From positions 10,004-74,003 of the forward strand of contig JAZLMH010000023.1 of NCBI GenBank assembly GCA_045598525.1: a stretch of 64,000 nucleotides of DNA, given 5' to 3'. Position 1 is the first letter of the stretch. The number at the start of each line of letters is the position of its first letter. The notes under the pieces are model-generated. The model had not been told where the DNA came from. It saw only the letters and a program-made list of their open reading frames with translations, and searched no databases. A program made the position numbers and the translations under genes. The DNA comes from Bacilli bacterium (lineage in GTDB: Bacteria; Bacillota_I; Bacilli_A; RFN20; CAG-826). Shown piece by piece: positions 7,765-51,556 of the stretch.

Positions 7765-9075
7765 TTATTCTAAACCATCCTTTCGTGACATAACGTTTGT
7801 GCATATGAATGTAGGTAAAACATTAACCACAAATATTAAGAGTAAAACCAAGAATTCTGGTGCATACACTTTTCCAAGGTTTAAGACAACACCCATATTA
7901 GATGCATAATTGCCCATAGCAAGCAAACCAAGCCTTGATAAACCAAAGGCAAGAATGACCGCCACAAGACCAACTATGGCGTTTTGAATCAAGTAAAGTA
8001 GGTTTACTTTCTTCATACTGATGCCAATTAATCTCATAAGCTTAATATCCTTCTTTGACTGATGCATGTTGAGCAATGTGATAATGACGATTACCAAAAT
8101 GTTCATAAGAAGAATGATGCCCGCTAAAGCGTACACGATATAGCTAGTTTGATCTGTGTCTTTAAGGACGTTTCTCATAACTGCCATAGGCTCGATTGCC
8201 TGAAGCGAGAACGAATTTCCATCTTCTGTGATAATCTTGCCATTGTATTCGTTTTTAAGTTGTGTGGCCGTCATTGGATTTGTTGTACGGATAAGTAATG
8301 AGCAGACTCTGTCTTCCATTTCTTCGTGATCATGATCTTCATGGTCGTGGTCATTAGTTGGGAGATCGTGTCCTGGGATGCCTTCGGTTTCGGATCCCTC
8401 TTCATGTTCATGATCGTGGTCTTCATCCTCGTGCTCATGATCGTGGTCTTCATCCTCATGTTCGTGATCGTGGTCATGTTCTTCGTGAATTTCCCAAATC
8501 GATCTAAGCTGAGTGAATACAACTGTGTCAAATGAAGAATGTGACTGTTCTAAGATGCCTTTGACGACAAACGGTGTGTGATGTTCATCACCAATTCCGT
8601 GTGATGTATAAATGCTGTCTCCGATTTTTAAGTCATTGACTCTTGCGACTGTCGATCCAACAACAACTTCAAAAACTTCGCCTTCGTCAAACATTTCGCC
8701 TTTTGCGATGTTTTTGCCTTCGAGATATTCAGGAGTTGTGCCAACCATGCTATAGCCGTTATAGTTATCCGCCATAGCAAAAGGAATGACAGACTTGACT
8801 CTTGAATCCATATCAAGCTGTTCTTTCACAGAATAAGGGATTGTGCCAAGAGGCTCGTCTGTGAAATACATTGAGTTCATGGCAAGCTGAGTAGCGCTGC
8901 CGCTAGGACCAATGATGAGGGAATAGTATTGTGCGTTGCTGACAAGACCATCGCTAACTTGATTAGAGACGTTAAAGGCCATAACGCCAACGCCAGCAGA
9001 GATGAGAATTGAAAGAATAATTAATATAAACTGAACTTTCTTGATGAGAAGGTTCTTGATAGCAAATTTAAACAT
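7765..9075 (-). CDS. ABC transporter permease, FtsX/MacB-like, with a histidine-rich extracytoplasmic insert
   Basis: 436 aa. An N-terminal TM helix is followed by a large extracellular domain carrying HEEHDHDHEHEDEDHDHEHEDEDHDHEHEE and HDHEDHDHEE stretches, then a 3-TM FtsX-type C-terminus. Confidence 0.7.
   Translation of the reverse strand: MFKFAIKNLLIKKVQFILIILSILISAGVGVMAFNVSNQVSDGLVSNAQYYSLIIGPSGSATQLAMNSMYFTDEPLGTIPYSVKEQLDMDSRVKSVIPFAMADNYNGYSMVGTTPEYLEGKNIAKGEMFDEGEVFEVVVGSTVARVNDLKIGDSIYTSHGIGDEHHTPFVVKGILEQSHSSFDTVVFTQLRSIWEIHEEHDHDHEHEDEDHDHEHEDEDHDHEHEEGSETEGIPGHDLPTNDHDHEDHDHEEMEDRVCSLLIRTTNPMTATQLKNEYNGKIITEDGNSFSLQAIEPMAVMRNVLKDTDQTSYIVYALAGIILLMNILVIVIITLLNMHQSKKDIKLMRLIGISMKKVNLLYLIQNAIVGLVAVILAFGLSRLGLLAMGNYASNMGVVLNLGKVYAPEFLVLLLIFVVNVLPTFICTNVMSRKDGLE
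8330..8492 (-). repeat. In-frame tandem nucleotide repeats encoding the His/Asp/Glu-rich tract
   Basis: The unit tcatgatcgtggtcttcatcctc and variants recur several times on the plus strand. The spurious antisense ORFs at 8271..8531 and 8326..8535 are artefacts of this repeat. Confidence 0.7.
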
Positions 9076-13533: not shown

Positions 13534-14658
13534 TTATTCTGCTTTTATTTGTTTGTTGGCCTTTTTGTTTTCATACATATTCTGGTCAGCTTTATCTAAT
13601 GCAGTTTCAAGAATTTCGATTTCAGGATTAAATTTTGTGTATCCATATGCAACTTCTGGTAGTTTGTATTCACTAATTTTGTTTCTTTCGATTTCTAGTT
13701 TTTCCAAGCATTCCTTAATCAATGCTTCGACATCACAATTTAGATTTTTGGTCGTGATACAAATGAATTCATCTCCGCCAAACCTATAGCATAAAAAATT
13801 GTTTTTGGTGAAGGTTGATTTGACTGCACCTGATATAATTTTGATTACTTCATCGCCAACAGCGTGGCCATATTTATCATTAATTTGCTTAAAATCATTG
13901 ATATCGAAAGAAACAATGACCTGAGCTTTATTCTCGGAGCTCTTTACATGAACGTCATAGGACAATCTGTTCATAAGTCCTGTCAACGAATCTGTTTTAT
14001 AACTAACCGAATACATATATGTGTAAAGCAATGTGAGGCCAATTATTGCAACTGGCCAATCAACCCTGATTTCGCTCCAAAAAAGGTGGATTGATAAACC
14101 AATAACGCCGTAGAAAAAGATCGCAATCAAGAATTGTATATCCTGTTTTTGGCTTCTTTCTGAATATCTTCCTGTCTCGAAAAGAAGATAGAAGATTGAG
14201 ACAAAATAACTGAGGTTGTAAATGAAATATAAATGAGCGTGGGCGTATACACCATTCTTGAATGTATAAATTAGCCATTCGAATTCGAAAGGCGCAGCAA
14301 CGCAGGAGACGATTTCTAACAGGAAGTTGAAAATAATGATTCCGAAAACGACACGGCAAATAGATTTTTTATATTTAAACCCAAGCGTCCAAACAAAGAC
14401 GGCAACAGGGGCCAAAGAATGTTCGAGCATTATCAAAACATCTCTAACAATGAAAAGGAATCCTTCCGTGGCACCACTTAACTTCTGATAACCGAATTCG
14501 CAAAGAGAAGACAATATCAAAATAATGAAGGTGACAGATGCAGAAATCTTTTTCCTTCTTTCAATAATTGGATTAGTCGTAATAGAGACTATTACCGATA
14601 ATGCGACTAAAACGCCTATTAAGATTATCGCTGAATAGAAATCCATTTTCTCCTCCAT
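13534..14658 (-). CDS. Membrane-bound diguanylate cyclase (GGDEF domain), second copy in the window
   Basis: 374 aa. About 8 TM helices are followed by a GGDEF domain (YRFGGDEF). It is co-directional and adjacent to the hydrolase gene. Confidence 0.8.
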   Translation of the reverse strand: MEEKMDFYSAIILIGVLVALSVIVSITTNPIIERRKKISASVTFIILILSSLCEFGYQKLSGATEGFLFIVRDVLIMLEHSLAPVAVFVWTLGFKYKKSICRVVFGIIIFNFLLEIVSCVAAPFEFEWLIYTFKNGVYAHAHLYFIYNLSYFVSIFYLLFETGRYSERSQKQDIQFLIAIFFYGVIGLSIHLFWSEIRVDWPVAIIGLTLLYTYMYSVSYKTDSLTGLMNRLSYDVHVKSSENKAQVIVSFDINDFKQINDKYGHAVGDEVIKIISGAVKSTFTKNNFLCYRFGGDEFICITTKNLNCDVEALIKECLEKLEIERNKISEYKLPEVAYGYTKFNPEIEILETALDKADQNMYENKKANKQIKAE

Positions 14659-16196: not shown

Positions 16197-16224
16197 TTGC
16201 AAGATGTTTTTCCCTAGATATTAT
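16197..16224 (+). promoter_or_regulatory. Candidate sigma-A promoter (TTGCAA-16-TATTAT) directly upstream of the riboswitch
   Basis: The hexamers were read by eye, with -35 ttgcaa at 16197..16202 and -10 tattat at 16219..16224. The predicted +1 falls at the aptamer 5' end. Confidence 0.35.
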
Positions 16225-16225
16225 T

Positions 16226-16302
16226 TAACAGCGTTAAAGGCAAAACCGTGGCAACGCGGCGACGCAAAACTAAAGGGCCCCATTGGGGCAGCCAGTTACC
16301 GT
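16226..16302 (+). promoter_or_regulatory. GEMM / c-di-GMP-I-like riboswitch in the 5' leader of the 16351..22753 operon
   Basis: The leader carries AAAGGCAAAACC, a CCGUG-GCAA-CGCGG hairpin with a GNRA loop, CGACGCAAAAC, a GGGCCCCAUUGGGGC P3-like hairpin, and GCAGCCAGUUACCG. These parallel the V. cholerae Vc2 aptamer elements GGGCAAACC / GAAA loop / GGACGCAAAGCC / GUUACCGA. Downstream, a CCUC-CAAA-GAGG hairpin can sequester the SD. Confidence 0.65.
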
Positions 16303-16344
16303 AAAAATTGAGGTGGTTTTATTCTTAAACCCCTCCAAAGAGGA

Positions 16345-17187
16345 ATGGCAATGGAAAAAAGGTACAAAAGAAAAGCTGCTGCTCTCATGGGCCTCACAGT
16401 TCTTTCTTGTGGAACATTGTTTGTTTCTTTAACGGCTGCTTGGTTCACAACCTTAAGGCAGGCACAGAATAACACAGAAGGCTTCAAGATTGGTGACACT
16501 GTACTCATCGAAGAGATCAAATTCTATCAACATAAATCAACCACTAACGGCTTAATCGATTTTTATCCAGCCGAATCAACCTACGAAATCGGAGATGGGA
16601 GATATAAGTCAGACCTGGGCTTCTATAACCTTCTCGAATCAAATTACCAAACTTTAATGGAAATCACCCTAACAAAAGATGCCGTTGATGGAGAATATGA
16701 ACTCGACTTCAACGCCACCACTTTCGCTACCCAATCTCATTTGACAGCCAACTCAACGGGTTCGCCAAATTACCCTTTAACAAACGACCCTTCGAGAAAC
16801 AATAGTCTTTCTTCGATTATAGACTTTTATGTTTTCTTTCAGAAAGACGTACAAGTTAGCAATCAAAAAATAAGTCTCTCAAAAGCAGAGAACGAAAATA
16901 ACAGAGACATAAACAATAAAGAAATATGCAATTTTATAGATAAGAATGATGACATAGTCGAATCAAAATCTATAAATCTTGTTAGTTTTAACGCAAAAGA
17001 TATTGCTGTAGACGGAGTATCTAAAATCTATGTCATGCTCGACTACAACGAGGAAAACTGCGCAAAGATGTATGGTAACAACATCGGTAATACAGCCATC
17101 GAAAAAGGCCATTTTTTAAGGAAAGGAACGGACTTACCAATTTTGAAGTTCGACGCGGACTTCGAATTTGATTTGATCATGAAGTGA
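16345..17187 (+). CDS. Secreted ~280 aa protein with a TasA/camelysin-type (SipW-cognate-like) signal peptide; candidate TasA-like fibre or matrix subunit
   Basis: The N-terminus is a basic stretch, a hydrophobic core and an AAWFTT motif (compare TasA GGGTWAAFND and CalY GGGTFAFFSD). The C-terminal strand DFEFDLIMK resembles TasA QFSFEATQ. The real start is probably the ATG at 16351, 7 nt after the GAGG SD. Confidence 0.5.
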   Translation: MAMEKRYKRKAAALMGLTVLSCGTLFVSLTAAWFTTLRQAQNNTEGFKIGDTVLIEEIKFYQHKSTTNGLIDFYPAESTYEIGDGRYKSDLGFYNLLESNYQTLMEITLTKDAVDGEYELDFNATTFATQSHLTANSTGSPNYPLTNDPSRNNSLSSIIDFYVFFQKDVQVSNQKISLSKAENENNRDINNKEICNFIDKNDDIVESKSINLVSFNAKDIAVDGVSKIYVMLDYNEENCAKMYGNNIGNTAIEKGHFLRKGTDLPILKFDADFEFDLIMK

Positions 17188-20100
17188 TGAAGATAAGAGA
17201 AAAGATTAAAAAACTGTTACTTATCTTTGGCTTTACCGCCAGCGCTTTTGCAGTGCTTGTTTCTTCTACTTTTGCTTGGATTGTTTCTTCTAACAAAGTT
17301 CCTATGGGCAATACCACAGGTTATACTCAAGGCGCTTATTTCGCGCGCGGCCGCGGTACACATGATGACCCATACATTTTGAACGCACCAATTCACTTAT
17401 ATAACCTTGCCTGGCTCCAGGAAATGGGAAAATTCAATGTCATCGATGAGACCACGGGCAAATATGAGCCAGTCTATTTCGAGATGGAAGCAGATATCGA
17501 TGTCTCTGAAACCGAATATCAGAAACTTCCTCCAATTGGCACTCCTGAATATCCGTTTATTGGTAACTTCAATGGTGCAGGCCACACGATTTCCGGTCTT
17601 AAGACATGCAACGAATTAGGCAGCGGAGAGGATCAAATCCTTAGAAAGCCTTCAAGCGTAACAGACATCAGCAACGCAAATGTCATGGGTTTCTTTGGCG
17701 TCGTTGGACCATATAACGGAAATCCTTCAGCAGCCACATACAACAGCCAAGCAAACGAGATCAAAAACTTTAACATCAAAAACTATTCAATAATTTCCAA
17801 AACATCAAACCTTCTTGTCGGTGCCGTCGCAGGCTACATCAATGGAAAAATTTCAGAAGTTGCCGTTTCTAGTGAAGGCGATGGAATCACTTTCGATATT
17901 GGTGAAAGCACATCAAAATTAGGCACATTCAACAACCTCAGTGATTATGGTCTGGTCGGATATGCCGCAGAGGAATACAGAACCGAGTTAAATAACGAAA
18001 AGGTTGAAATTTATAACACGTTCATAACTGACGGTGATTCTGCAGGCAGTTCCTCAGGAAACCAAGACGCTTGGGGCGGAAACATTACCGCAGGAGATTT
18101 AAGCAACAGAATCAACACCCTTGCTGGCGACTCAGGAAACCAAACCGCTCTTAAATGGGAAAACAAAGTCAAAGAAAGAACGGCTTTTGTCGAAGGGGAA
18201 ACCGTCTATTCAGAAACAATTGTCGAGTACACCGATGAAGAATTAATGGTTGGAGCCTCCCAATATGAAGACGCAAACAACAAGTTAAAAGGCAAGGTTA
18301 TCTATGGAGAAAACCAAAACAATGATTTTTATGGTTCTTTAGACAGACCGGAAGAACTTGGCTATAGAGAAACTATTTATTCTCCTGGAGGGTCTGCTGA
18401 TTCTGACGACCCTGGCTCTGGATCTACAGGAGGAGGAGAACCATCAGACACACCAGGAGGAAACGTTGATATTCCTGGACGTCCAAAAAAATTTAAGGAA
18501 CCTACAACAGACGAATCCATTAACTACCAATATATCAAAGGCGGCCAATGGGGAGGCTTTGACAGTTTTAATGAAACTGAAGCTAACGGATCAATCTTTG
18601 AAAGAGATGAGCATTATATAATTACATTCACTGCGTCTAACAAATTTTATCTAGGTTTATGGAGCCTCGGGGAAAACGACGTAGTTCAATTAAACACAGG
18701 ACAATCTTATGTTTTCAGGGATTGGGGACAATATTTAAGACTTTGTGAGAGAAACGATTATGAGTCTGAAAAGCCGTGGTATCTCAGATACAACGGGCAA
18801 TCTCTAGTTTTGACAGGCAACGAAAGTTGGGCAAACGTTGTTTTCATCAACAACAAACTTCGTATTGACCCTACAAACATCACACATAACGCAAGAATTA
18901 CGTCTCCTACAACTGGATTAAATACCGCAGCCTTTAGCTATAACAATCAGGCATCTAAGTATTCCTTGCCAACAACTTTTCGTGCCAACGAGGGGCTTGT
19001 TCCTGTCCCTTATTACTTCCTCGAAAACCAAAATGGCGGATCACCAACAGTTACAAAAGATAGAAGCAATGCTACAAAGTTCACTTTAGACGCAAACAAC
19101 TTCTTGTTGTTTAAAAACAAAAGCGGAAACCAGGTTAACATCGGTACATATAACGAATGGACTTTTGAGCAATACGTTATTGCTAACGATAATTTAGGCA
19201 TGGCTTTTAGGGTCGTAGAGGAAGACGGAAAAAGCTACATCAGGCTTTACAAGAGAGTAACAAACGATAATGGAACAACATTGACTGCCCAAAGCCAGTA
19301 TTTGTATTACGATAACGTGTCTTTTGGTTATACAACGAATAGAGCAGAATCCAACGTCGTATTTGATGTTGAATCAAGCAAGCTTAAAACAGTCAAGTAT
19401 TGTCAAATAAGCGATTTAGGCGAGGATGACTATATCCCAACTACAAAGAACAAAAAACACGAAGAAAAGGTCGGTTCTTCCTACCTTCCTTTAAACGTAT
19501 ATAACACCACGCCGATCCCAGCCGAAGACCAAACAAACTTCTGGAACAATAGCACTCTCAATCCTGATGGATTAACTCCAGGTTTGTATACCCCTACACC
19601 AACAAATAATGGTTATGTCGTTGGCGGTACAAAAAATGATAGTGTCGATCTTACAGACGCAGCTGCAATTAAGTTTAATCAGTTCAGCGGCGTTGCCCCT
19701 TTTGGCGGAAACCAATTTGATGTTATGACTGTTAACCCTTCTTCTGGTCAATTCACATTTGTCAAAGATGACGGAGAATCTAGTGCAATATCTGCAAATA
19801 GAGAAACGCTTAGCCACATTCAAGACTGGAGCAAACACTCATATAGCGATTTAGGTCTACAAAGATTCAAAGAATCCAAAGCGACAATCGGAACAAAGCT
19901 TGGCACCGACCAAACTTTCATGCGCTTCAACGGAGTTAATATCAGCGATAAAGAAATCGTTACGGCAGATTATGCTTTATTTAATCAGCATATCTACAAA
20001 GATTATGAATTACCTGAATCTTCATTTGATTTCAAAGTTGAGGATGAGGTAGGAATCTTTAACATGTTCACAAGCGCTTATAGAGAAGGCGCGGATTGTA

Positions 20101-21206
20101 CAGGCTTTGCCTCTTTCTATCAAATCCTTAGAGATGGGGATGAAAAAATTACAGAAATCAAACGTATCAGTAAAATTTATGGCGACGATTCTGGCAATAT
20201 CGCATATCAGTATTTTGAAGACATCTCTTCTGCAACAACGGCTGATGGTTATTTTGATAGCGATCAGAATGCGGTCTCGATTACTGGATATACCTTAAAA
20301 TTCGACATGGCTTGGTTAGAGAGCCCAGGATTTGCAAACACCCATGCAGGTTGTTATTACTTCGAATGGCCGGCTGCCCAAGGCGAATACGCAATTGCAT
20401 CAACCCCAAATAGCGAAACAGAAGCAAAGAACGGCTATATGTATTATGTCGGAGTCGGTGCTCCAGTAGAAAACATTCAAAGAACACAAATCTATGAAAA
20501 ATACGTTAAAACAAAAACCTCCAGCACTGTTGTTAAAGGCGTTTATTTCGTAAACGACTTAAGCGATCCTCGCTCTTCAAGCAATAATCTTGCCATCAAG
20601 ATTGAAGATGGATTTACAGGCGTCATCTCTATTTCCTCAAACGCTAGCAACGAAGTCATCGTTGAAGGTTTTAATTCCACTACTACCGAACTAAATTACA
20701 AAAACTATGACACGGTATTCAAAGAGTCAAGCGACGCTTCGGACGAAATTGAAGTCGGGTCTTCGTCGGCAATAGAAACAACAGTAGAAAAAGTAACGTA
20801 TATCGACGGTGAAGGAGACAGCCAAAAAATGTATTCCATCACCAAGACTACAGTTAATAACAATGGCGTTTTAAGTGACCCTGTTAGAGAAGGCGTTTTA
20901 TATGAGACGATCGGGGCAGAACCTAAGAATTACGAAAACGCTGCAATGAATCCAACCAACACTAACGTCAATACTGTCATTTATGAGTTCCACTACACAT
21001 TTATAAAAGAAGATGTTATTGAGCTGACCGTGGCGTTCAAGCTTGATGACGGATCAATGACAACAGGCAAATATTACGTTACCTTTGAGGGTAACTCTGA
21101 AGACGTCAACATAACATTCAACGTATTCGACAGCGATGAGATTGGCATTTACCTAAATGACGCTCTGGTTGAAACGTTTACCATATTGGTGGAGGCTAAT
21201 TTATGA
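17184..21206 (+). CDS. Giant 1340 aa secreted protein with a SipW-cognate-like signal and a beta-helix-like N-terminal domain; putative adhesin or fibre-associated protein
   Basis: The signal is KKLLLIFGFTASAFAVLVSSTFAWIVSS. Just after it comes GRGTHDDPYILNAPIHLYNLAWL, the G-x-G-T-x-x-x-P-Y-x-I cap common at the start of pectin-lyase-fold beta-helices, then FIGNFNGAGHTISGL. A Gly/Asp/Pro-rich linker sits near residue 410. The start overlaps the upstream stop (GTGATG). No recognisable catalytic motif was found. Confidence 0.6.
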   Translation: MMKIREKIKKLLLIFGFTASAFAVLVSSTFAWIVSSNKVPMGNTTGYTQGAYFARGRGTHDDPYILNAPIHLYNLAWLQEMGKFNVIDETTGKYEPVYFEMEADIDVSETEYQKLPPIGTPEYPFIGNFNGAGHTISGLKTCNELGSGEDQILRKPSSVTDISNANVMGFFGVVGPYNGNPSAATYNSQANEIKNFNIKNYSIISKTSNLLVGAVAGYINGKISEVAVSSEGDGITFDIGESTSKLGTFNNLSDYGLVGYAAEEYRTELNNEKVEIYNTFITDGDSAGSSSGNQDAWGGNITAGDLSNRINTLAGDSGNQTALKWENKVKERTAFVEGETVYSETIVEYTDEELMVGASQYEDANNKLKGKVIYGENQNNDFYGSLDRPEELGYRETIYSPGGSADSDDPGSGSTGGGEPSDTPGGNVDIPGRPKKFKEPTTDESINYQYIKGGQWGGFDSFNETEANGSIFERDEHYIITFTASNKFYLGLWSLGENDVVQLNTGQSYVFRDWGQYLRLCERNDYESEKPWYLRYNGQSLVLTGNESWANVVFINNKLRIDPTNITHNARITSPTTGLNTAAFSYNNQASKYSLPTTFRANEGLVPVPYYFLENQNGGSPTVTKDRSNATKFTLDANNFLLFKNKSGNQVNIGTYNEWTFEQYVIANDNLGMAFRVVEEDGKSYIRLYKRVTNDNGTTLTAQSQYLYYDNVSFGYTTNRAESNVVFDVESSKLKTVKYCQISDLGEDDYIPTTKNKKHEEKVGSSYLPLNVYNTTPIPAEDQTNFWNNSTLNPDGLTPGLYTPTPTNNGYVVGGTKNDSVDLTDAAAIKFNQFSGVAPFGGNQFDVMTVNPSSGQFTFVKDDGESSAISANRETLSHIQDWSKHSYSDLGLQRFKESKATIGTKLGTDQTFMRFNGVNISDKEIVTADYALFNQHIYKDYELPESSFDFKVEDEVGIFNMFTSAYREGADCTGFASFYQILRDGDEKITEIKRISKIYGDDSGNIAYQYFEDISSATTADGYFDSDQNAVSITGYTLKFDMAWLESPGFANTHAGCYYFEWPAAQGEYAIASTPNSETEAKNGYMYYVGVGAPVENIQRTQIYEKYVKTKTSSTVVKGVYFVNDLSDPRSSSNNLAIKIEDGFTGVISISSNASNEVIVEGFNSTTTELNYKNYDTVFKESSDASDEIEVGSSSAIETTVEKVTYIDGEGDSQKMYSITKTTVNNNGVLSDPVREGVLYETIGAEPKNYENAAMNPTNTNVNTVIYEFHYTFIKEDVIELTVAFKLDDGSMTTGKYYVTFEGNSEDVNITFNVFDSDEIGIYLNDALVETFTILVEANL

Positions 21207-22753
21207 AATTAAACTTGGTTCTAATAGCTGCAGGAGTTTTTGCTCTTGCTAGTTGCGCAAATTCTAATAATGGGAGCGGCAGCAAGGCTCCATCAAGCAG
21301 TACTCAAAGCGAAAACAGCACTAAATTAGTTTTAAGTAACGACATCGAAAAAGCAGAAAGAGACATCGATAATTCTTTCAACGCTTTTATGTCTGCCAAA
21401 GATAATCAAACCAAGAATGCTTTGTTTTTTGGTCTAAATAAAGCAGCCGCAATAGCAGAGTTAAATCTTCATGGAAACATCGCATATGAAGGTCATGATA
21501 ACGGCGAAAATAGCGCTTTTGTCAAAGTGACAGCAGAACCAATGAGCCAAGCTTATGGTTTCCTTGAATCAATAGTCCTACAAGGCCACCCTAAAGAAAA
21601 CTACTCAGGAAAGAGTTTCTTCACCAGCCCTAATTCAAATAGGCTTGGCATTCTTACTTTCGAAGACAGGAATGAAGTAATAATCGAATATTGGAGTGAT
21701 TATCATATGGTAATCGGCAACGATGATGCTGGACCATATGTCTTATCTTTCAACTTTAGCGAAAAAGAACAATATCTCAATTATGAGACACCTTATTTTG
21801 GTTTCGTTTATAACAACGTTGAAGACAATTTCGAAGAAGATTATGAAGCTATAATGAACTTTGCTTCTTCTACTCTAGACGTCTCTTCAGCACCTTTTTC
21901 CATGGTTAAAGAAATCTATTTAGATGATGGAAGGGACCTTCACCCTACTTATAGTAGCGAAAATCCTGATCATGTTTTGTATAGCAAAGTTAAAAATAAG
22001 TATTTTAGCGATAACGTCCTTTCTGAAATCTATTTCAAAAAGAAATATTATGTTGGAGCACTTAATAGCCAAGACACATTAGAAATTAGCGACAACACAT
22101 TAAGAAGCGTGGATTACCTTTCAATGACTTTTGAACTAGATGTTCCTGAAGGAGTTACGACAATCGAAAAACTCTATGGCAATAGCGATAGAACGAACTA
22201 TATCTACTGCCTTCATCTTCCTAGCAGCGTAGAAACAATTCTTCCTTCAGCAATCAACGAAAATGTTATAACTGATTGCGTTTTTATCGATGGAGAAACC
22301 CCAAAGCCACAATTGGAATCTGTTTTAAAGGGATTTAATCCAGATATTAAAATCTATTATTCTCCAGATTTCCAAATTGTTGGAGGACTGTATGTCCCTA
22401 ATGCTTTCCATAACCAGTCCACAGAAGATGACCATGAACACGTATTCACTAAAAAGATTGCTTCAGAAAATATATTTTGCGAAGAAGCAAATTGCCAACA
22501 CCCAACAAGATATTTCTATTCTTGCAACGAATGTGACGCCACATCAATCGCAGTTTTTGAAGAGGGCGAGTTAGGCAGTCATATTTTCAGTGAAATTGAA
22601 ATGCAAAACAGGTTCCCTTGCATTGGGTATTTCGTATACGAACGCTGTGAAATCTGCAACGAGCAAACATCGACATGGGTCGACCCTGTGGACGAAGGCC
22701 ATGAATATAACGAAGACGGTCACTGCAGATACTGCGGTAAATTAAATAACTAA
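21203..22753 (+). CDS. Lipoprotein with BspA-type LRR-like segments and a Cys-rich C-terminal domain (putative zinc-ribbon-like)
   Basis: 516 aa. The signal has an LASC lipobox. A 4 nt ATGA overlap couples it to the giant gene, and GGAGG sits 9 nt upstream. The C-terminus has CEEANCQH...SCNECD...CIGYFVYERCEICNEQ...GHCRYCGKLN with eight or more paired Cys. Confidence 0.55.
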   Translation: MKLNLVLIAAGVFALASCANSNNGSGSKAPSSSTQSENSTKLVLSNDIEKAERDIDNSFNAFMSAKDNQTKNALFFGLNKAAAIAELNLHGNIAYEGHDNGENSAFVKVTAEPMSQAYGFLESIVLQGHPKENYSGKSFFTSPNSNRLGILTFEDRNEVIIEYWSDYHMVIGNDDAGPYVLSFNFSEKEQYLNYETPYFGFVYNNVEDNFEEDYEAIMNFASSTLDVSSAPFSMVKEIYLDDGRDLHPTYSSENPDHVLYSKVKNKYFSDNVLSEIYFKKKYYVGALNSQDTLEISDNTLRSVDYLSMTFELDVPEGVTTIEKLYGNSDRTNYIYCLHLPSSVETILPSAINENVITDCVFIDGETPKPQLESVLKGFNPDIKIYYSPDFQIVGGLYVPNAFHNQSTEDDHEHVFTKKIASENIFCEEANCQHPTRYFYSCNECDATSIAVFEEGELGSHIFSEIEMQNRFPCIGYFVYERCEICNEQTSTWVDPVDEGHEYNEDGHCRYCGKLNN

Positions 22754-42706: not shown

Positions 42707-45700
42707 TTAACCTGGAAGACCAGCCAAGGCTTTTGAACGATCGCTAAATAACTTGAAGTCTTGCCTTGTTTCGCCATACGTCCAATATTTAATTGCGGTA
42801 TTAGCATTTGAAACATCGGCTTTGGTTTCAGCGTAATAATATACGGTGCAGTTCTTTTTAGAGTTGGCTGGGTAATGAACCGTTGCGTCATATTGGATGC
42901 CACCTGCGACATTTGGAACCTGATGGGAAGCTTGGCACGCTCTTTCGCCAACAAGCAAACTGCATGTTGGGAATATTTCTACATTAGGTAATGTGATTTT
43001 TGATATTTTTGTGGCGTCATTTCCTGTTGTGTCAGGAAGGTGGACATATTTGATTAATGAGCATTCTGTAAATGCCTTTTGACCAATGTGAGTAAGATTT
43101 GTTGAGTTTCTTAAATCGACAACACCATCTGTTTTGGTTGTAGGCTTAGGCAAGGTTGTGAGTGTTGGGTTCATATAATATCTGTAATCTGGTTGCGAAT
43201 CATTCATCTTTGATAAAACATTATCGCCAAAGAATGCATTCTCCCCTATCTCACGAATGCTTGTTAATTGGGTGAAATCAAAAGTGGTTAGAAGTTTGTT
43301 TCTCATAAACGCACCCTTTTGCGAGGCGCCATTATATGTGACGTTGTTTGTCATTGGATGGCTTGATTGCCACGCTTCAGGATCGCTTGAATCTAAATGA
43401 GGACCGTTAATGTATTTTAAGCCAGACAAATCGCCTTTAATTTCTGTAAGAAGAGGATTTGCCGCAACACCATAACCATAAATTGTTGTTAATGAGCTTG
43501 GGATTGTAACTGATGTTGCAGCAGTACCAAAAATACCTTCAGCGTTAATGTATTTAGTACCTGGTTCAATTACAAAATTACCAGTTGTCTGTTTTTGAAT
43601 GGTGTATAAGAGGCCAACATGGTTGCCATTCTCATCATAATACAAGGTGTCCCCTACCCAAGAAGTGTTATTAAGGGTGAATCCTGTTTTATCAAAATAT
43701 TCAATCTTTGAACTAACTGTGTGTCCTGTTGTGGATGATGTGATCTTTGCCATGGTCGAGAAAGAAGAAACATCAAAAGTCGTCATCGCTGAATCAGTAG
43801 ACACGCTTACAAAACCGTTATTAAAGAATGCGAATTTTCCAACTTTTGTGCATGATGCTGGGAGTCTACAATATGCAGATTGGCCATTAGGATCTTGTTG
43901 GATGACATCCCCTACTTTATAAGTAAGAACAGTAAGAACTGTACTTGGCAAAGATCCGCCAGAATCATATGTTGAGAAGAACGATCTATCGCCAATCTCC
44001 TCTAATGTATCCGGCAAATATACTTTTTGTATGCCTTTTCCACCAAACACAAAGTCGCCAATCCTTTTAATTGGGGTAGGCGTATTTAGGGTTGTCAAAT
44101 CGATGGTCGTTTGAGAGCCAAAGTATTGTGTGATAGTCGTTCCGCCGTTTTCCTGAATCGTAGCAAATTTGCCGTTGTCATAATACGTAACGCCTGTTTC
44201 TAAATCATCTAATACGTATAATGGGCAAGGTCCTGCGCTGTTTTCAGAGTTTGTTGGTTTGACGTTCGAGTTGGTTGATTCTTGTAAGTAACCAGACTCA
44301 GGGTTTAACCAACTTTTATCTGCTGGTTCTCTGTCTGTGTATACGACAACCGAGTTATGGCCTAATAATGTTTTTTCCCATCCAAAGCTAGAGGATGTAT
44401 TGAACCTAAGGTTAAGGAAAATTTCCTGAAGGTTTGTTCCTGAGAAAACGCTGTTTTTGAACGTCTTTAAACAAGAGCTGCTTCTAAAACTCTTTAGGTT
44501 GGCACAGCCATAAAAAGCTTTGTCGTTAAAAGATATCTGAGACATATTGTCATTGGTTAGCCCATGAACGCCATGTTGGCATTCCGTCATTACCACTTTT
44601 TCAATCGATAAGGCATTAAGGAACGCAGAGTTACCTACGGCATAATTGCCACTACCTCCAGCCAAAGAAGCGGTACCATCATTTAAAGAACAAGGTAATT
44701 CTAAAGTGAATTTGGAAGTTGCGTCCTTCCCTAAATTCTCAAAACAGTTGTTACCAATATCGACAAGAGAACAATCAGCAGTTGGGTCTGTTTTAAAAGA
44801 AAGATAGCTGACTTTGTATAAGTTTTTAAAGCAGGAACTCCAGAAATAAGTGAGTGAATTTGGAAGTATCAATTCTTCCATCTTATTGTTTCCATCGTCT
44901 CCAAACTGATACCAGCCAATTTCTTTTAATTCAGTACAGTTTTCATACCTTAACTGCTAAATATTAGAGCATCCTCTATAAGCGCTATACCAAACTCTGA
45001 CCAAGCTGCTGTTATGAATAATGCCCTTTAATTCTTTGTGTCCATCAAACGCTCTAGGACCAATAACGGCCAATGGATACATCTTGTTGGTTTTTTCATC
45101 ATAAACATAATCAGGCAATGTGATTATTTGGTTATGCATGAAGCCCTCAACGTCTTCTGTTTCCGTGCGGTCATACGAAATCAACGTTGCGTAGTCGTAG
45201 TTTGTTTTCCAGTTTGTTTTTCCTGACTCTGATTTAATTGTGGCTTTTTGTGAAAATGAGCAAAGCAGGCCTGGGCACTGATTGATGCTTGCGACATTAA
45301 CAACGTTATAAATAACGTCAATTTGCTTTGTGCTAGAGGTCCCAGAGTACAAGTAGTTGTAATAAGACCCAAATTTTGAAGGTTTGCTTGATGCTTGAAT
45401 GCTGATTGTCAAGTTATCACATTGCGTGAAAGCAAAATTCTCAATACATGTAACATTCTTTGGGATAAAGAACGATGTAAGGTTGCCACATTTAGAGAAT
45501 GCGTATGATCTTACTGTGATAGGGTTGTTTGGCAAAAATATGTATGGAAGTGCGTAGCAGTTTTCAAAAGCGCAGTTGCCAATTTCTAATATTGCTTGAG
45601 GGATTGTGAATCTTTTGAGTTTATAACATGATGCAAAAGCGTTGTTCTCAATGATTGTGATCTTGTTATTGATCGAGTCTTCGGGAAGGCCTTCATGAGC

Positions 45701-46177
45701 GTATTTAACGGATTCAAGGTTTCTACAGTCCATGAATGTAGCGCATTGGATTGAAGTAATGTTTTCTGGCAATGTTACTTCTTTTAAATTTACGCAGCAC
45801 ATGAATGCTTCAGGCTTAATTTCATCAATAGAGTTTGGAATATCTATTGCGGAGAAATCGCAATTTGAAAAACCGCCCGTAGAAATGCATTTGACTGTAT
45901 ACACATTTCCTTCAAACGAAAGAGATGAAGGGAGAGAAAGATGGGATGGAGTTGTGCTTCTGTCGTCGTTTGCCCAACCAACGGAAATAGACCCAGGATT
46001 ATTCTCTAGAGTTTTGCATGTATATTGATAACCATTAGAGTCGGTAGCGACAAATGAACTTTCTTCGTTTTCGATATAATAGGCAGCAAGGGCAAAAATG
46101 TTCTGAACATTTAAAACAATGAGGCCAAACAAAGCGACCGCTAATGTAATTATTTTTTGAAAAGTCTTCTTTTTCAT
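42707..46177 (-). pseudogene. BspA-type leucine-rich-repeat surface protein (~1155 aa) interrupted by a single in-frame TAG at 44957..44959
   Basis: The ORFs 44957..46177 (406 aa, with signal peptide) and 42707..44881 (724 aa, no signal, starting mid-repeat) are in the same frame. The 75 nt between them reads through as ...GCSNI*QLRYENCTELKEIGWYQFGDDGNNKMEELILPNSL..., continuing the LRR_5-type periodicity (IxxxAFxxCxxL). Confidence 0.6.
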
Positions 46178-46179
46178 TG

Positions 46180-49129
46180 CTATGCCCCTCCCCTATAACT
46201 GTTTCCTTTTTTCTGATACGTCGCGTTTAGAATGTGCGGCGCGTTATCTATTACGTAATAAGGCAAAACCTTTTTGTCTAAAATGAGCAAGAAATCAACA
46301 AAATTATTAGACGTTTCGTCAAATATAAGTTTCAAATAACCTTCATCGGAATTTGCAATGAACGACCCGTCTGCGATATTAAACTCAATGGTCATAGAGA
46401 CTTCTGAGAACTGAAGCTCCTGCCTTGAATAAACCAAAGGATCGTTCAATACGAAATCAACGTTTGCAATGGAGTTATCCATAAGTGGTCTATTGCTTGA
46501 GCCGATTGTGCCATCGTTTTGACCTTGGGCCGCCAAAAAGTAAATGTTTGCCGTTCCATTAGCAGCGCCAATGCAATATTCCCCTTGAGGTAATTTAAAG
46601 ATGTGAGCAAACAATCTTCCTGATCTTGTTAAGGTTTCAGGATTAACAACCGTTCTGTCGACAGCTTTGGTGTCTGTTGTGCCAGTTGCTGCGTCATATC
46701 TAAAATACCTACACATGTCGTTGCCTGCACCATTGTTGTGATACAAGTATTGATAAGTTGATTCGCTTGAGTGCATCGTGTACTTTTTTGTGAATGTTGA
46801 GTCGGGCGTGCTTGAATCAAACCCATAAATAGAAATGTCGTCTTTGTTGCCAATAACTGAGACGTTTGCGCCATTAGGGTTTTCAATTTTAAAAAGATAG
46901 CGTTTGATGGGTAATAAAGTTGCTGATCACCTGAAGTAAAGGCGAATTTTGTTTTAGGTATACCTACTGGCATGTACGAGGATAAGCCGTTTAAAATCTC
47001 GTTCTCACTGCTTCTTAACATGAAGCCAAATCTTTGTGTTCCAGGATTGATTGAAGAGCCATATTTATCGATCAACGTGTTCGAAAAATAGTTGGTTAAG
47101 AAAGAACTTTTAGTGTTATAGAAGAAGTTATTGCCGTGAGTGTTGCCGATATCAGCGATATTCATTTCGTAGATATAGTCAAAGTCTCTTTGGTAAAGAG
47201 GCGAGAACGTATTTACTGAACTCCAGTTTGGTTCAGCTCCAATATTGTCTAACTGGTTGTCTGAGGTATTCCATTTGTAATTTACGCCAAATTTTGTGTG
47301 GTCAATCTCGGCGGTTGAATAATAAACCTTTGTCTTAGGTGTCATCTCATTGATGATTTTGCTTGTGCCAATGCCATCAAGATAAAATTCGCCAATGTTT
47401 TCTGGCGTAATGATGTTATCGCTATGGCCGGTTGTTATTTTGAAAACGCCAAGACCTCTATCCTTTCCTTCTTCGTCAGAAATGACTTTGTTATTCGCAA
47501 AATCGACGGTGTTTACTTCTGAGTAATACTCTTTTGTGACTGTGAATGAGCCTGTTTTTGTTTGGTCTTTGCTTATTTTTGTAATGTAATGCTGAGGAAC
47601 GGCTGCGTCCTGACGTAAATATTCGCTATATAAGCCTTCATAATCCTTTATTTTGTCGTCATACATGATGTATGAGTGCTTTGTGCTTTCGTGGTAGCCA
47701 AAAGTAGCTGTAGTAGTTTGGTTGACCTCATAGTTGTCTCTGATAACGCCGTAAACTTTAGAGAAGTTCATGACACCTGTTTCGCCATGGAGCTGCAAAG
47801 AAATGTCGGGTGATATATCGTTTAAAACGCTTGTGCCGATTTCACCAATCAACCCTGTTTGTGATTCACTCTTAACTGCAGTCAAATCGCTGCTATTTAA
47901 GTTTAGAGCGCCATTATATAGGTAACAGTTATTGAGACTGCCATCAACATGGCCCGCAATATACCCAACGTTCGTACCGTGATGGTAGTTAGTGAAATCG
48001 CCTGCGACAAAATCACAATAAAGTGTCATGCTGTAGTTGCCTTCATCATAGGTTGAGCCATTGGAATTGATGCGGCATAAATATGTTTGAACAACCCTTG
48101 AATAGACATAGCCGTCAACAGTTATAGAAGCGATTAAAGACAGTCTTGTGTCAATATAGACATCTTCTGTGTTGAATTCTTCATAGTCTTTGAGCCTTGA
48201 GAAATTGACGAACGCTCTTTCTTCGCCATTCACTTCGCGTTTTTCTAACAACGTGGTAGAGAATCTCCAGTGATAATTAAACGCGGTGTCGTTAGGGTGA
48301 TATTCGGTGAAGTAAAAATCAGAATATTCAACTTCTTCTATCGTGTTTATATGATCATTGGAATTGATGCGTGAATACGATGTTGCGCCCAAACCATTAG
48401 GATTCTTTAATTCAATTGACGCTCCATCATATGAAAGTTTGAGGCCACCATCTTTAGCAAAACGTTCTGTTTCTGCGGCAAAAATGTCATCTACTTCGCT
48501 ACCAAACAATTGATCAACATTGCTGTTTCTTGAATCGTATCCCGTTGAATTAACTGTGAGGTCTTTAAATATAACGTTTTCTACCGATGCGTTAGAAGCA
48601 ACATAGCCAAAGACGCCAATATCTTCTGGATAACCTGTTATTTCAAGATTTGTGATTGGAATGTTATGGCCGTCAAAGTCTCCATAGAAAGGCGCGCTTT
48701 CACCCCCAATAGGTGGAAGTTCAATACCGCTCATTGAAGACATATCTAAATATTTTGTTAATTCTGTTTCACCATTATCACGAGGTATTATGCACTGGTA
48801 TCCTTCTGATTCACTGAAAACATGGCCAACCGTGAAATATGTTTTCTTTTCGAAAACCCCAAGGTTCTGAAGTCTTGTTAAGTTATAAAAGTGAATTGGG
48901 AAACGATTTCATAAGGGTTCTCTTGTGTGCCATTTCCATCATAGAAATAACTTCTTAAGCCAACCTCGCCACCAACAACTTGATCTTTCTCAACCGTTGG
49001 AACAGCTACGATAAACCACGCGAAAGTGCCAACTGCAATAGCGGCTGTTGAAAGCAAAGACAGGAATCCTATGACCAATGTTCTTAACTTGTTATTAGAC
49101 ACCATAACCAAACCTAAAAATATAGTCAT
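46180..49129 (-). pseudogene. Degraded paralog of the 17184..21206 giant protein, split into 3 ORFs by two frameshifts
   Basis: ORF 48878..49129 has the SipW-like signal VGTFAWF and NPYEIV. The frame switches at the plus-strand aaaa run at 48887..48890; the shifted frame gives FYNLTRLQNLGVF...LPPIGGESAPFYGDFDGHNIPITNLE, matching YNLAWLQEMGKF...LPPIGTPEYPFIGNFNGAGHTISGLK. A second shift near 46890..46930 restores ...IKRYLFKIENPNG, matching NNKLRIDPTN. The C-terminal ORF 46180..46776 matches the C-terminal region of the giant protein (GEYCIGAANGT... vs GEYAIASTPNS...). Confidence 0.65.
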
Positions 49130-49967
49130 CCACTACCGCAAGATTCTCTAAGCGGACCGTATCAACGAAAGAAGCGAGAACCTGCATGTTGTAATTAACG
49201 TTTATATAAACCGTTGTGACCATGTCCTCATCCACGTCACAATCGCCATTATATAAAGTGAACTCTTCTATAGAATCGTCGCTAAAGAAGTTCATATGGG
49301 TTGTTGATTCAAGGGAAGAAAGATAACTGAGCTTATGGTAAACAGTCTCGTCTTCAGTCATTACCTTGCTTTGTTGCATATATGATGGGTAATAGTGTTT
49401 ATGCCCGTTATCTTCTAAAAGCTCGGATGTTAAATCTCCCTCTAAAAAGATATTAAAATCTAAGCAAGAGGACGCTTTGATTTCTTTTTCATGCAAACCG
49501 ACTGCTCTAAGCATTGTATCCACTTTGAGTTTTGCGCTTCCGCCAGTGAACTTGATTTTGCATTCGTAAATAATGTTTGTATTCATTGAAAGCAAAGGGC
49601 TGTGGTTAATTAAATAATCAACAGGGTCATATACGTTCATTTTGGCGTCACGTTCCTCAAATACATCATTTTCAAAAACACCAAACTTTGCTTGCTCTTC
49701 GTTATATGTGTATTTATGTACTTCTCCATTTTGTGGGGAAAGGTAGTCTACATAAGAATCATCCTCACCAATAGAAACAGAAGGATAAACAAACTTATAA
49801 ACATTTAATCCGATTAGCTCATTAGAGTCTGTATTGGCAACAGCAAAAGTCATGCCCGATACAGCTGCTTGTCTGTTTGCTGAAAACCACGCTAAAGAGC
49901 TGGTTGCTAGAGCTGCGGCTGAAGCGATAAAAACAAAAATAGAGCATGCGACTTGTTTACGGATCAT
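49095..49967 (-). CDS. Secreted ~290 aa protein with a SipW-cognate-like signal; paralog of 16345..17187 and intact
   Basis: It starts MIRKQVACSIFVFIASAAALATSSLAWFSANRQ. It overlaps the start of the downstream pseudogene, and its TAA stop lies inside the next gene's first codons. Confidence 0.5.
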   Translation of the reverse strand: MIRKQVACSIFVFIASAAALATSSLAWFSANRQAAVSGMTFAVANTDSNELIGLNVYKFVYPSVSIGEDDSYVDYLSPQNGEVHKYTYNEEQAKFGVFENDVFEERDAKMNVYDPVDYLINHSPLLSMNTNIIYECKIKFTGGSAKLKVDTMLRAVGLHEKEIKASSCLDFNIFLEGDLTSELLEDNGHKHYYPSYMQQSKVMTEDETVYHKLSYLSSLESTTHMNFFSDDSIEEFTLYNGDCDVDEDMVTTVYINVNYNMQVLASFVDTVRLENLAVVDDYIFRFGYGV

Positions 49968-49975
49968 TGGTTCCT

Positions 49976-50047
49976 ATCTGTAGCTGGCTGCCTTTTAGGG
50001 CCCTATAGCTTTGCGTCGCCCGATTTCTCGAGTTTTGCTCTTTAAGA
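49976..50047 (-). promoter_or_regulatory. Second GEMM / c-di-GMP-I-like riboswitch on the minus strand, upstream of the locus-2 cassette
   Basis: The minus-strand RNA reads UUAAAGAGCAAAACUCGAGAAAUCGGGCGACGCAAAGCUAUAGGGCCCUAAAAGGCAGCCAGCUACAG. It aligns position for position with the locus-1 element (GCAAAAC; GNRA hairpin CUCGA-GAAA-UCGGG; GGCGACGCAAAGC; GGCAGCCAG). It abuts the RBS AUAGGAACCAAUG of the 290 aa gene. Confidence 0.6.
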
Positions 50048-50054
50048 TGCGCAC

Positions 50055-50090
50055 ATTATATTCGCGTGCGTACGTAAAGTAAATAATTTG
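50055..50090 (-). promoter_or_regulatory. Candidate promoter for the locus-2 riboswitch/cassette (TATAAT at plus 50055..50060 on minus, with a weak -35)
   Basis: The minus strand reads gaaTATAATgtgcgcatcTTAAAG, spaced like the locus-1 promoter/riboswitch junction. The -35 is poor (TTTACT). Confidence 0.3.
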
Positions 50091-50399
50091 TGTGCGGTTT
50101 CATATTTCTTATGCAGTCTTGAATTTTATAAAAGCCAAGGTTTATTCGGATATTTTCGCAACATTTTGTTAAAACTAAATTCATAAGAAAAATTGATACA
50201 AAAAATACAGTCACTTCAATTTATGTGGTTGCCCATCACGTTGAGCCTTGCTTTCTATATACCGGTGGTTTTATGGGCCGATCAATTTACCATCATCGGA
50301 ATGCTTATGCTTCCGAAAACAATTATGTATATGTGAGCTATTTGGATGGGGTATTGGGAAGCAAGAAAACCTGAAATCAAATAAACTAAAAGTGAACGT

Positions 50400-50443: not shown

Positions 50444-51556
50444 ATGAAGCGTTCTAAGTTAATCAAACCATTTATTGCTCTAGCATCATTATTGGTGGTG
50501 TGTTCTTGCACTTCAAAAGAAGAAAATTCAGTAAGCCAAGTTTCTTCAAACGCTGAGCAATCAAGCGGCGTTTTTGTTGACCCTAACGTTGTAAGCCTCC
50601 CTTCCGTTTATTCTCTTGAACAAAAACTTAATTCTAAACTGAGTGTTACCTTGGAATACGAACTTAATAACACACGTAACGAAATACAATTTACCCGTTA
50701 TGGTGAGTACACCAAATACGAAGACTCTGGTTCAGAAAGCGATAATTGCTTTGTTAAAAACGATTCAGGCCGTGGCCTTTTCTATGAAAAAGACGAAAGC
50801 GGGCGTTACACTTCTTTTGTCTGTGACGACTTTGATCAACACCAATACTATAGGAAATCCTATGTAGGTTATTTTGGAGGCGTTGAGTATGTCTTCAAGT
50901 CAAACCAAGAAATTTCATATCTTGGAAGAAGCTGCATCAAATACACAAACAAAGAAGAAGCAGATGATTCAATGCAAGATTCTTTAATAATTGATAAAGA
51001 GACTGGTTTAGTCCTCCATTACGACTTAAAAGAACTTACGCAGAATAGCAATAAGGGCACGCTACAAACTGATTTCAAATTTAACGTTAAAGAAATCCGT
51101 TTTGGTGAAGAAGCGAAAAACACAATAAATGAAAACATTGAGAACGTGTATGCTGAACCGCTTAGTTCAACTACATTAGAAGCGCTTGGTTTCCAAGGTG
51201 AATTAGAAACACCAAACTTCGCCATCAGTGATTGCTCAACCAAATGGCAAGGTGAAAGCTTAAACGAATATAAAATCGAATATAAAGACAGGGTTAACAG
51301 CGGAAACGATACATATATTAATCAATTTGAAACGTTTACGACATGTCTCTATAACATGGGCTTCAAGAAGCCTTCATCTCAAGCTTCAGATGGTAACTAT
51401 CAAGCTCTTGTTGTTGATTCAACGTTTGATTATGACGCAGACATTTCCTTTGCCGCCTTTGCAACAAAGAACAGCAACACATATAAAGCAGAAAGCCATT
51501 TGACTGTAAAAGGTGGTCAGGCTTCAATAACGTTCACTCTTAATCATGTAGCGTAA
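50444..51556 (+). CDS. Lipoprotein, 370 aa, function unknown
   Basis: The signal has an LVVCSC lipobox and no catalytic motif was recognised. Confidence 0.5.
   Translation: MKRSKLIKPFIALASLLVVCSCTSKEENSVSQVSSNAEQSSGVFVDPNVVSLPSVYSLEQKLNSKLSVTLEYELNNTRNEIQFTRYGEYTKYEDSGSESDNCFVKNDSGRGLFYEKDESGRYTSFVCDDFDQHQYYRKSYVGYFGGVEYVFKSNQEISYLGRSCIKYTNKEEADDSMQDSLIIDKETGLVLHYDLKELTQNSNKGTLQTDFKFNVKEIRFGEEAKNTINENIENVYAEPLSSTTLEALGFQGELETPNFAISDCSTKWQGESLNEYKIEYKDRVNSGNDTYINQFETFTTCLYNMGFKKPSSQASDGNYQALVVDSTFDYDADISFAAFATKNSNTYKAESHLTVKGGQASITFTLNHVA

Follow-up and report, generated by a model that had tools for sequence, protein, structure and literature searches.

The 64,000-nucleotide (nt) stretch analysed here (hereafter the window: positions 10,004 to 74,003 of contig JAZLMH010000023.1 from a Bacilli bacterium) contains, on its minus strand at 49976-50049, an RNA aptamer of the GEMM-I class that lies directly upstream of a gene for a 290-amino acid (aa) protein. 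The class membership of this element, which we call copy 2, is established by covariance model, architecture and covariation. We are moderately confident, from the sequence and its comparison among relatives, that copy 2 is a functional cyclic-dinucleotide riboswitch, that its ligand is most probably cyclic di-GMP (c-di-GMP) and that it exerts translational control over an operon that encodes surface or secreted proteins. A second GEMM-I aptamer, copy 1, precedes a related gene cassette at locus 1 in the same window. The features that distinguish copy 2 are a transcription start that apparently coincides with its closing helix (P1), the lack of a separate expression platform, a Shine-Dalgarno sequence (SD) that abuts P1, and the presence in the same genome of a sister copy that has a G at the ligand-reading position 20 and a different platform. 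Variants with an A at position 20 (A20), short P3 stems and GEMM-I switches acting on translation are already documented, and the current understanding of the class is not overturned by this locus.

Identification and architecture of the two aptamers

We used cmscan to compare the whole 64-kb window with the covariance models of Rfam 15. Exactly two matches exceeded the gathering threshold, and both were to RF01051 (the c-di-GMP-I/GEMM-I riboswitch), for which the gathering score is 35. Copy 1 (16229-16303, plus strand) scored 61.0 bits with an E value of 1.8e-9 and full model coverage, and copy 2 scored 55.2 bits with an E value of 4.6e-8 across the full model (1-87). An earlier note, made from the letters alone, had placed a riboswitch on the minus strand at 49978..50045 and proposed that a search with RF01051 be run on that strand; the scan bears this placement out, since both copies match the model above its threshold. 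The same note allowed for the case that the likeness of the two copies might be confined to A-runs or that the search might fail on both, and we find instead that the likeness resides in the conserved GEMM-I core and is accompanied by covarying helices. The elements that it quoted are all found on the minus strand (UUAAAG, GCAAAAC, the hairpin with a GAAA loop, GGCGACGCAAAGC, GGGCCC and GGCAGCCAG). Its further observations also hold, namely that the aptamer runs directly into the ribosome-binding site and start codon of the 290-aa gene (AGGA at 49975-49972, ATG at 49967) and that a TATAAT lies at a similar distance upstream as in locus 1, the -10 box being separated from P1 by 6 nt in both. 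Its description of the copies as near-identical was too strong, because only 52 of the 76 aligned positions (68%) are the same and one of the differences is a ligand-contact nucleotide.

The individual elements of copy 2 are listed in Table 1. P1 directly adjoins a 6-nt J1/2 and a 2-nt J1/3, and the very next nucleotide after P1 is the first of the SD. The aptamer makes up almost the whole 5' untranslated region of the operon. The distal stem of P3 is shortened: in the cmscan alignment 13 of its consensus positions are deleted, and of the tetraloop-receptor motif nothing but the 5' half (CCUAA) is left. In the type 1 architecture a GNRA tetraloop on P2 docks with a receptor in P3; copy 2 has the GAAA loop and lacks the distal P3 stem and the 3' half of the receptor. 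A short P3 is a common feature of the 127 unrelated genome matches listed in the survey described below.

The promoter-like site of locus 1 reads TTGCAA-16-TATTAT (16197-16224, plus strand), and the spacing of 6 nt between the -10 box and P1 is also seen in three orthologs of the copy-2 locus (L001, L002 and L003). Based on this arrangement, the copy-2 transcript is predicted to start at P1 or no more than 2 nt away from it. The spacer and discriminator of the copy-2 promoter (50049-50077, minus strand) are composed of GC-rich alternating purines and pyrimidines (ACGTACGCACGCG ... GTGCGC). Together these sequences make up an inverted repeat that encloses the -10 box, and the orthologs are similar at this site within otherwise AT-rich DNA. 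The repeat may reflect an operator or a discriminator effect.

Conservation and covariation among relatives

Close relatives of the 290-aa product are few, a word-indexed search giving 8 clusters, and nine loci encoding them (L001-L009) were examined. In each of the eight loci that include upstream DNA, an RF01051 match exceeding the threshold lies immediately before the orthologous gene; the sequence of the ninth, L007, ends inside the aptamer, where the same 3' half is present. The distance from the end of the aptamer to the ATG is 9-10 nt in seven of the eight loci and 43 nt in L009. A metagenome scan added four distant homologs (L135-L138; 33-37% identity), each with a GEMM-I-type aptamer upstream. 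Two of these, L137 and L138 of the 37%-identity lineage, match RF01051 at 54.1 bits, and the other two, L135 and L136 at 33% identity, match only RF03167, at 54 and 41.3 bits, which is below the threshold of 59 for that family.

The GEMM-I structure was tested on ten distinct leaders taken from both cassette families, with 500 column shuffles and with alignments in which the 3' partners had been slid by 1-3 columns as controls. With the GEMM-I structure 90.5% of the cells are paired, and in 10 of the 20 pairs both partners have changed. Not one of the 500 shuffles reached the observed values, and the controls with slid partners were 19-36% paired. The folding of the alignment, which the earlier note had suggested, was performed with RNAalifold and independently recovers P2 and P3, with compensatory changes among the relatives in four of the five inner P2 pairs. 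The outermost pair of P1 covaries as well: the window has A-U, L001 has G-C, and both L002 and L003 have G-U. The juxtaposition of the P1 3' strand with the SD is found again in L002, L003 and L007. The linkage of aptamer and gene in all eight orthologous loci, together with the compensatory changes, argues for a functional regulatory RNA rather than a chance resemblance, as had been proposed from the sequence of the window.

An unusual arrangement was seen in some of the distant relatives, where the 3' half of the aptamer (GAUAGCCAG...) is present twice: at 992-1123 in L137 and L138, and on the minus strand of L078, beginning near 1506. A terminator-like hairpin and a U-run lie between the two GAUAGCCAG copies, and Rfam treats this as a 51-nt insertion in P3. 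The duplicated 3' half may constitute an unusual nested expression platform.

Table 1. Coordinates of the copy-2 riboswitch, the genes downstream of both aptamers and the GGDEF genes of the window
Feature	Position	Strand	Details
Promoter-like site	50055..50083	-	-35 TTTACT 50083-50078, 17-nt GC-rich spacer, -10 TATAAT 50060-50055; 10/12 matches
Predicted transcription start	about 50048-50050	-	First P1 nucleotides; predicted from the promoter position
GEMM-I aptamer copy 2, RF01051	49976..50049	-	55.2 bits and covariation
P1 5' strand AUCU	50045..50048	-	Pairs with AGAU 49979-49976, 4 base pairs (bp)
J1/2 UAAAGA, 6 nt	50039..50044	-	Last nucleotide A50039 = Vc2 G20 / Gs1761 A14 position
P2 hairpin	50013..50038	-	G50038-C50013, C50037-G50014, CUCGA/UCGGG stem, GAAA tetraloop 50027-50024
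A47 equivalent (J2/3)	50012	-	From the cmscan alignment, GACGC-A-AAGC
P3, shortened	49982..50010	-	AGCU/AGCU outer stem, GG/CC, GCC/GGC, loop CUAAAA
J1/3 AC	49980..49981	-	C49980 = Vc2 C92 equivalent; layout as Gs1761 G74-C75
P1 3' strand AGAU 49979-49976, then directly SD AGGA 49975-49972	49972..49979	-	
Gene 1, 290 aa	49095..49967	-	N-terminal hydrophobic helix ending in invariant A-W(-F) motif, then beta-rich domain
Gene 2, ~975 aa in relatives	46180..49129	-	Here open reading frames (ORFs) of 83, 704 and 198 aa
Gene 3, BspA-type leucine-rich-repeat protein, ~1156 aa in relatives	42707..46177	-	In-frame TAG here
Copy-1 cassette: 280-, 1340- and 516-aa genes	16345-22753	+	Downstream of aptamer 16229..16303
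Membrane GGDEF protein, likely diguanylate cyclase	13534-14658	-	Canonical Asp in GHAVGD, RFGGDEF motif; next to cassette 1
Membrane GGDEF protein	2705-3862		Canonical Asp in GHDVGD

Position 20 and the identity of the ligand

Model position 11, directly 5' of the first P2 pair, is occupied by G in copy 1 (16239), as it is in the consensus, and by A in copy 2 (50039). In the numbering of the Vc2 riboswitch this is position 20, one of a triad of ligand contacts (G20, A47 and C92) that is not complete in copy 2, where A50039, A50012 and C49980 give A-A-C, a documented natural variant within GEMM-I. In Vc2 the second guanine of the ligand is bound by C92 through Watson-Crick pairing, A47 is the adenine intercalated between the two ligand bases (PMC5888326), and position 20 reads the first base of the ligand (PMC6140456, PMC6456294). 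According to PMC6140456, G20 contacts the Hoogsteen edge of one ligand guanine and is replaced by A in the riboswitches for cyclic GMP-AMP (cGAMP), known as GEMM-Ib. The GEMM-Ib riboswitch Gs1761 has a 6-nt J1/2 that ends in A14 and is followed directly by P2 (PMC6274999), and A50039 of copy 2 is the adenine at this same position. The c-di-GMP-I-GGC variant (RF03167), which needs G47 and a score >59, is excluded for copy 2 by the A at its position 47; L135 and L136, whose matches to that family are below threshold, also carry A47.

These features allow copy 2 to be read as a GEMM-Ib riboswitch selective for 3',3'-cGAMP, with copy 1 (G20) sensing c-di-GMP, so that the paralogous cassettes would be placed under two different messengers. 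We keep this reading, which we consider unlikely, because A is the majority state of position 20 in the 290-aa family: it is found in seven of nine lineages (the window, L001, L002, L003-6, L009, L136 and L137/138) and G in the other two (L008 and L135). Copy 2 also retains A47 and C92 beside A20, which is the 'AAC' signature, and it is reported that position 20 alone flips selectivity in Gmet_0970, where the single change A20G turns selectivity for cGAMP into selectivity for c-di-GMP (PMC6456294), and that an A20 aptamer from a Firmicute, Cbe 1-2 of Clostridium beijerinckii, binds cGAMP (PMC6140456). However, several natural A20 aptamers outside Geobacter, Cbe 1-2 among them, are reported to be bispecific, and the G20A mutant of Vc2 binds c-di-GMP at 53 nM and cGAMP at 120 nM, the wild type binding c-di-GMP in the picomolar range (PMC6140456). 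A20 is necessary and not sufficient for cGAMP selectivity, since both Vc2 G20A and Cbe 1-2 bind both ligands.

The distribution of position 20 and the genes of the window speak further against cGAMP selectivity. The base toggles in orthologous leaders, G being found in L008 and L135 of the 290-aa family, while in the 280-aa family of copy 1 the window and L130 have G and L133 has A. We surveyed unrelated Bacillota matches by means of a core pattern, taking one genome per species, and among the matches listed (n=127) position 20 was G in 105, A in 20 (16%) and C in 2. Besides CD-NTases of the DncV type, cGAMP is formed by GGDEF proteins of the Hypr type, which have Ser or Thr instead of Asp at the specificity residue, position 348 of GacA (PMC6456294). 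The possibility of a Hypr GGDEF in the window was dropped, as both GGDEF proteins encoded within the 64 kb carry Asp at this position, and the Pfam scans of the window ORFs tested showed no other nucleotide cyclase or CD-NTase-like gene, only housekeeping and unrelated families. No cGAMP synthase is visible among the genes tested in the 64-kb window. The GGDEF gene next to the copy-1 cassette keeps this adjacency in L130 (2421-3533; 61% protein identity), which suggests, at the level of gene order, a local module of cyclase, riboswitch and effector.

Because A and G are exchanged among orthologs, the local GGDEF proteins are canonical and A20 is present in 16% of the unrelated matches listed, we favour c-di-GMP as the physiological ligand of copy 2, with A20 tuning affinity or adding cross-reactivity, an assignment that is likely and not certain. 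The source of the c-di-GMP would be GGDEF cyclases of the canonical type, of which the window encodes two, and the change of G20 to A would lower the affinity or add cross-reactivity with cGAMP and would not replace c-di-GMP.

Expression platform and direction of control

The two aptamers are followed by very different sequences. Copy 1 has a platform of 40 nt with the hairpin GAGGUGG...CCCCUCC and the SD AGAGGAA. In the platforms of the copy-1 family (16304-16344, plus strand, and those of L130 and L133) we observe a purine-rich segment (GAGGUGG, GUGGC or AGCUGG) that can pair with the 3' strand of the aptamer, followed by a U-rich run, a CCUCC-like anti-SD segment and then the real SD. Such a layout would fit a switch that the ligand turns on and that unites a weak terminator with the release of the SD. 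In copy 1, its orthologs, L135 and L136 the aptamer 3' strand can alternatively pair with a downstream segment that precedes a U-rich run, and in these layouts the ligand should, by design, probably favour expression (an ON switch).

Judging from its leaders, the copy-2 subfamily has lost the separate platform, and its SD follows P1 directly. We folded the predicted transcripts of the subfamily and found no conserved anti-SD helix in the ligand-free ensemble. L003 has a largely unpaired SD, and that of the window pairs weakly with a CCUA that is not conserved. Three candidate mechanisms were set aside. An anti-SD helix inside the aptamer, between the CCUA of the P3 loop and UAGG, can form in the copy 2 of the window and is not conserved in L003. 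A register-shifted P1, in which the SD pairs with the P1 5' strand, is possible only in L002 and L008. A hidden terminator can be dropped for copy 2, as the site scan of the minus strand showed no terminator-like site after the aptamer.

Since no conserved helix sequesters the SD, the ligand-free copy 2 looks translatable, and the control that it exerts is probably translational. In the mechanism that we propose, the weak P1 would be open without ligand, leaving single-stranded RNA upstream of the SD on which initiation would be allowed. With ligand bound, P1 would close and the compact three-helix fold would lie flush against the SD with no single-stranded standby region, hindering the binding of the 30S subunit and thus acting as a steric OFF switch. 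There is a precedent in a preQ1 riboswitch, in which a compact ligand-bound fold that adjoins and does not contain the SD attenuates translation (PMC10018353). We favour steric repression because of this precedent and because the one consistent feature of the subfamily is that a ligand-stabilised P1 would bring the fold flush with the SD. Our confidence in the direction of control is modest: we lean tentatively to an OFF switch without giving it even odds, we give an ON switch a smaller though real share, and the remainder goes to neither.

An ON switch, which we consider possible but doubtful, could work in either of two ways, by a ligand-induced P1 that protects the mRNA from decay dependent on its 5' end or by the removal of competing pairings that would hamper initiation, such as one between the 5' half of the aptamer and codons 6-9. 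It is known that c-di-GMP commonly induces adhesins, which would agree with such a switch. In both cassette families the predicted transcription start falls on P1, and the homologous cassettes in relatives have anti-terminator, that is ON, layouts. The competing pairing is also reflected in the unconstrained minimum free energy fold, in which GAGCAA and GCGAC from the aptamer are paired with GUCGC-AUGCUC of the coding sequence. Its energy is -24.7 kcal/mol, and that of the aptamer fold is -16.8 kcal/mol; the conserved codons MIRKQVACS keep this complementarity in the orthologs. In this alternative fold, however, the SD and AUG are largely unpaired, so that no obvious OFF state of translation results, the transcription start is a prediction, and control of stability is not known for any GEMM-I riboswitch of such a layout.

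If steric repression in copy 2 is combined with the ON platform of copy 1, a more elaborate arrangement can be drawn, in which copy 1 (G20) would read c-di-GMP and turn its cassette on, while copy 2 (A20) would read either 3',3'-cGAMP or c-di-GMP at a much higher threshold and turn its operon off, resulting in the reciprocal toggling of surface structures. We regard this as quite unlikely. If it were true, one or two cyclic dinucleotides would toggle alternative surface structures of the family with the A-W-F motif in uncultured gut or rumen Bacilli.

State of the locus and findings that count against a functional switch

The copy-2 operon was compared with the intact loci L002 and L003, which have ~91% DNA identity to it across 7.4 kb. 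No lesion affects the promoter, the aptamer, the SD or the first gene. The gene of ~975 aa is split into three ORFs by 1-nt deletions near 48899 and 46890, and the leucine-rich-repeat gene is interrupted by an in-frame TAG at 44959-44957. An alternative genetic code was rejected as the explanation of the TAG, as translation under table 11 leaves the other long ORFs uninterrupted. The three lesions may be assembly errors or real decay. They raise the prospect that copy 2 is a decaying relic, with an aptamer that can still be recognised in front of an operon that is no longer functional, a reading for which the two frameshifts in gene 2 and the nonsense codon in gene 3 speak. We consider this very improbable: all conserved core nucleotides of the aptamer are present and the elements up to the first gene are undamaged, while the lesions are single-base changes of the kind that assemblies produce and the orthologous operons are intact.

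Several findings nevertheless weigh against our preferred reading of copy 2 as a functional c-di-GMP switch of translation. The disruption of genes 2 and 3 means that the locus may be decaying. The P1 of copy 2 has only 4 bp, L008 has no P1 directly adjoining the junction (the helix is absent or shifted) and L001 has no recognisable SD. In the relatives with longer leaders (L135, L136 and the copy-1 family) the aptamer 3' strand serves as the 5' arm of a terminator-like hairpin, which is an ON design, and an OFF switch in copy 2 would invert the logic of these homologous cassettes. Finally, A20 is over-represented in the 290-aa family (7/9 lineages compared with 20/127 unrelated matches listed), an excess that hints at selection beyond plain c-di-GMP sensing.

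The regulated genes

The order of the genes for the 290-aa, ~975-aa and ~1156-aa proteins is kept in L001, L002, L003 and L007. Searches with the 290-, 280-, 1340-, 975- and 516-aa proteins gave no Pfam or NCBIfam match at E values up to 10, and the PDB sequence search gave no match. The predicted structure of the 290-aa protein is beta-rich with a pLDDT of 85.8, and structure comparison showed no significant structural neighbour of this fold. The family of the 290-aa protein comprises 117 representative sequence clusters. The products of the copy-2 operon are proposed to be surface or secreted proteins, and the products of both cassettes likely have surface, adhesion or biofilm functions.

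The earlier note had called the cassette behind copy 2 paralogous to that of locus 1, and the homology is real but only remote. A BLASTP comparison of the 290-aa with the 280-aa protein gave an E value of 0.002 for an N-terminal segment only, while hhalign of a 51-sequence profile of the 290-aa family with a 13-sequence profile of the 280-aa family gave a probability of 97.6% and an E value of 2.8e-12 over 214 columns, with the first genes at 17% identity. Between the second genes of the two cassettes the first ~150 residues are 34% identical (E 4e-14). By these profile and sequence comparisons the cassettes are true paralogs from an ancient duplication.

In the public annotation gene 1 is called as P0003 (252 aa) from Met39, and the N-terminal helix with the A-W-F motif is missing from it (49854-49967 region). 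Because the Met39 start drops this conserved N-terminus, the start at 49967 that yields the 290-aa product is, from the comparison of sequences, the better one. The first nine codons of the gene (MIRKQVACS) are more strongly conserved than is usual in a signal or anchor region and show complementarity to the 5' half of the aptamer.

On the other side of copy 2, a divergent ORF for a lipoprotein-like protein of 370 aa (50444-51556, plus strand) has no Pfam match, and L001, L003, L004 and L005 have a gene of similar size and the same orientation upstream of the riboswitch (383 and 373 aa). The neighbourhood upstream of copy 2 appears to be conserved, judged by gene size and orientation. Elsewhere in the window, a permease-like ORF (7765-9075, minus strand) contains a long repeat of His, Asp and Glu (HDHDHEHEDEDHDHEHEDEDHDHEHEE...), and the HDHDHEHEDEDHDHEHEDEDHDHEHEE repeat may be a metal-binding loop.

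Significance

The analysis provides a firm annotation of two cyclic-dinucleotide riboswitches in the window and links a second-messenger pathway to an unannotated protein family, the 117 clusters of which share the A-W(-F) motif and a confidently predicted, unmatched beta-rich fold. Sister aptamers with G20 and A20 and different platforms in one genome form a natural test case for the role of position 20 and for the loss of a platform, and the pair could show how the choice of ligand and the regulatory logic are tuned. The compact layout of copy 2, in which a promoter is followed by an aptamer from the predicted +1 and directly by the SD, represents a minimal design for a translational GEMM-I switch and has possible uses in engineering.

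Comparison with known systems

The Vc2 riboswitch of Vibrio cholerae belongs to RF01051 like copy 2 and shares with it the three-helix junction, the GNRA tetraloop of P2, the GACGCAAAGC junction strand and the equivalents of A47 and C92. Vc2 controls translation and not termination, which is the probable case for copy 2 as well. Unlike Vc2, copy 2 has A in place of G20, a truncated P3 without the complete tetraloop receptor, and a 4-bp P1 at the predicted 5' end of its transcript. The SD of copy 2 abuts P1, whereas the masked ribosome-binding site of Vc2 is described as distant from the aptamer in work cited in PMC9262584 (its reference 61).

The GEMM-Ib riboswitches of Geobacter (Gs1761 and Gm0970) and the bispecific Cbe 1-2 resemble copy 2 in the A20 equivalent, the 6-nt J1/2 and the 2-nt J1/3 that ends in C. 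Those of Geobacter are transcriptional ON switches in a deltaproteobacterium with a Hypr GGDEF cGAMP synthase, whereas copy 2 belongs to an uncultured Bacilli lineage, with no such synthase seen in the 64-kb window; position 19 also differs, being G in copy 2 and U13 in Gs1761.

The ligand-bound preQ1-I riboswitch of Carnobacterium antarcticum has an unrelated fold and ligand and is like copy 2 in mechanism only, in that a compact bound fold lies beside the SD without sequestering it (PMC10018353), as we propose for copy 2. The nearest comparison is within the genome itself: copy 1 and its orthologs in L130 and L133 share with copy 2 the riboswitch class, the spacing from promoter to P1, the short P3 and the position upstream of a homologous two-gene core, while copy 1, at 68% identity, differs from the platform-less copy 2 in having G20 and a 40-nt platform with weak terminator-like and anti-SD hairpins.

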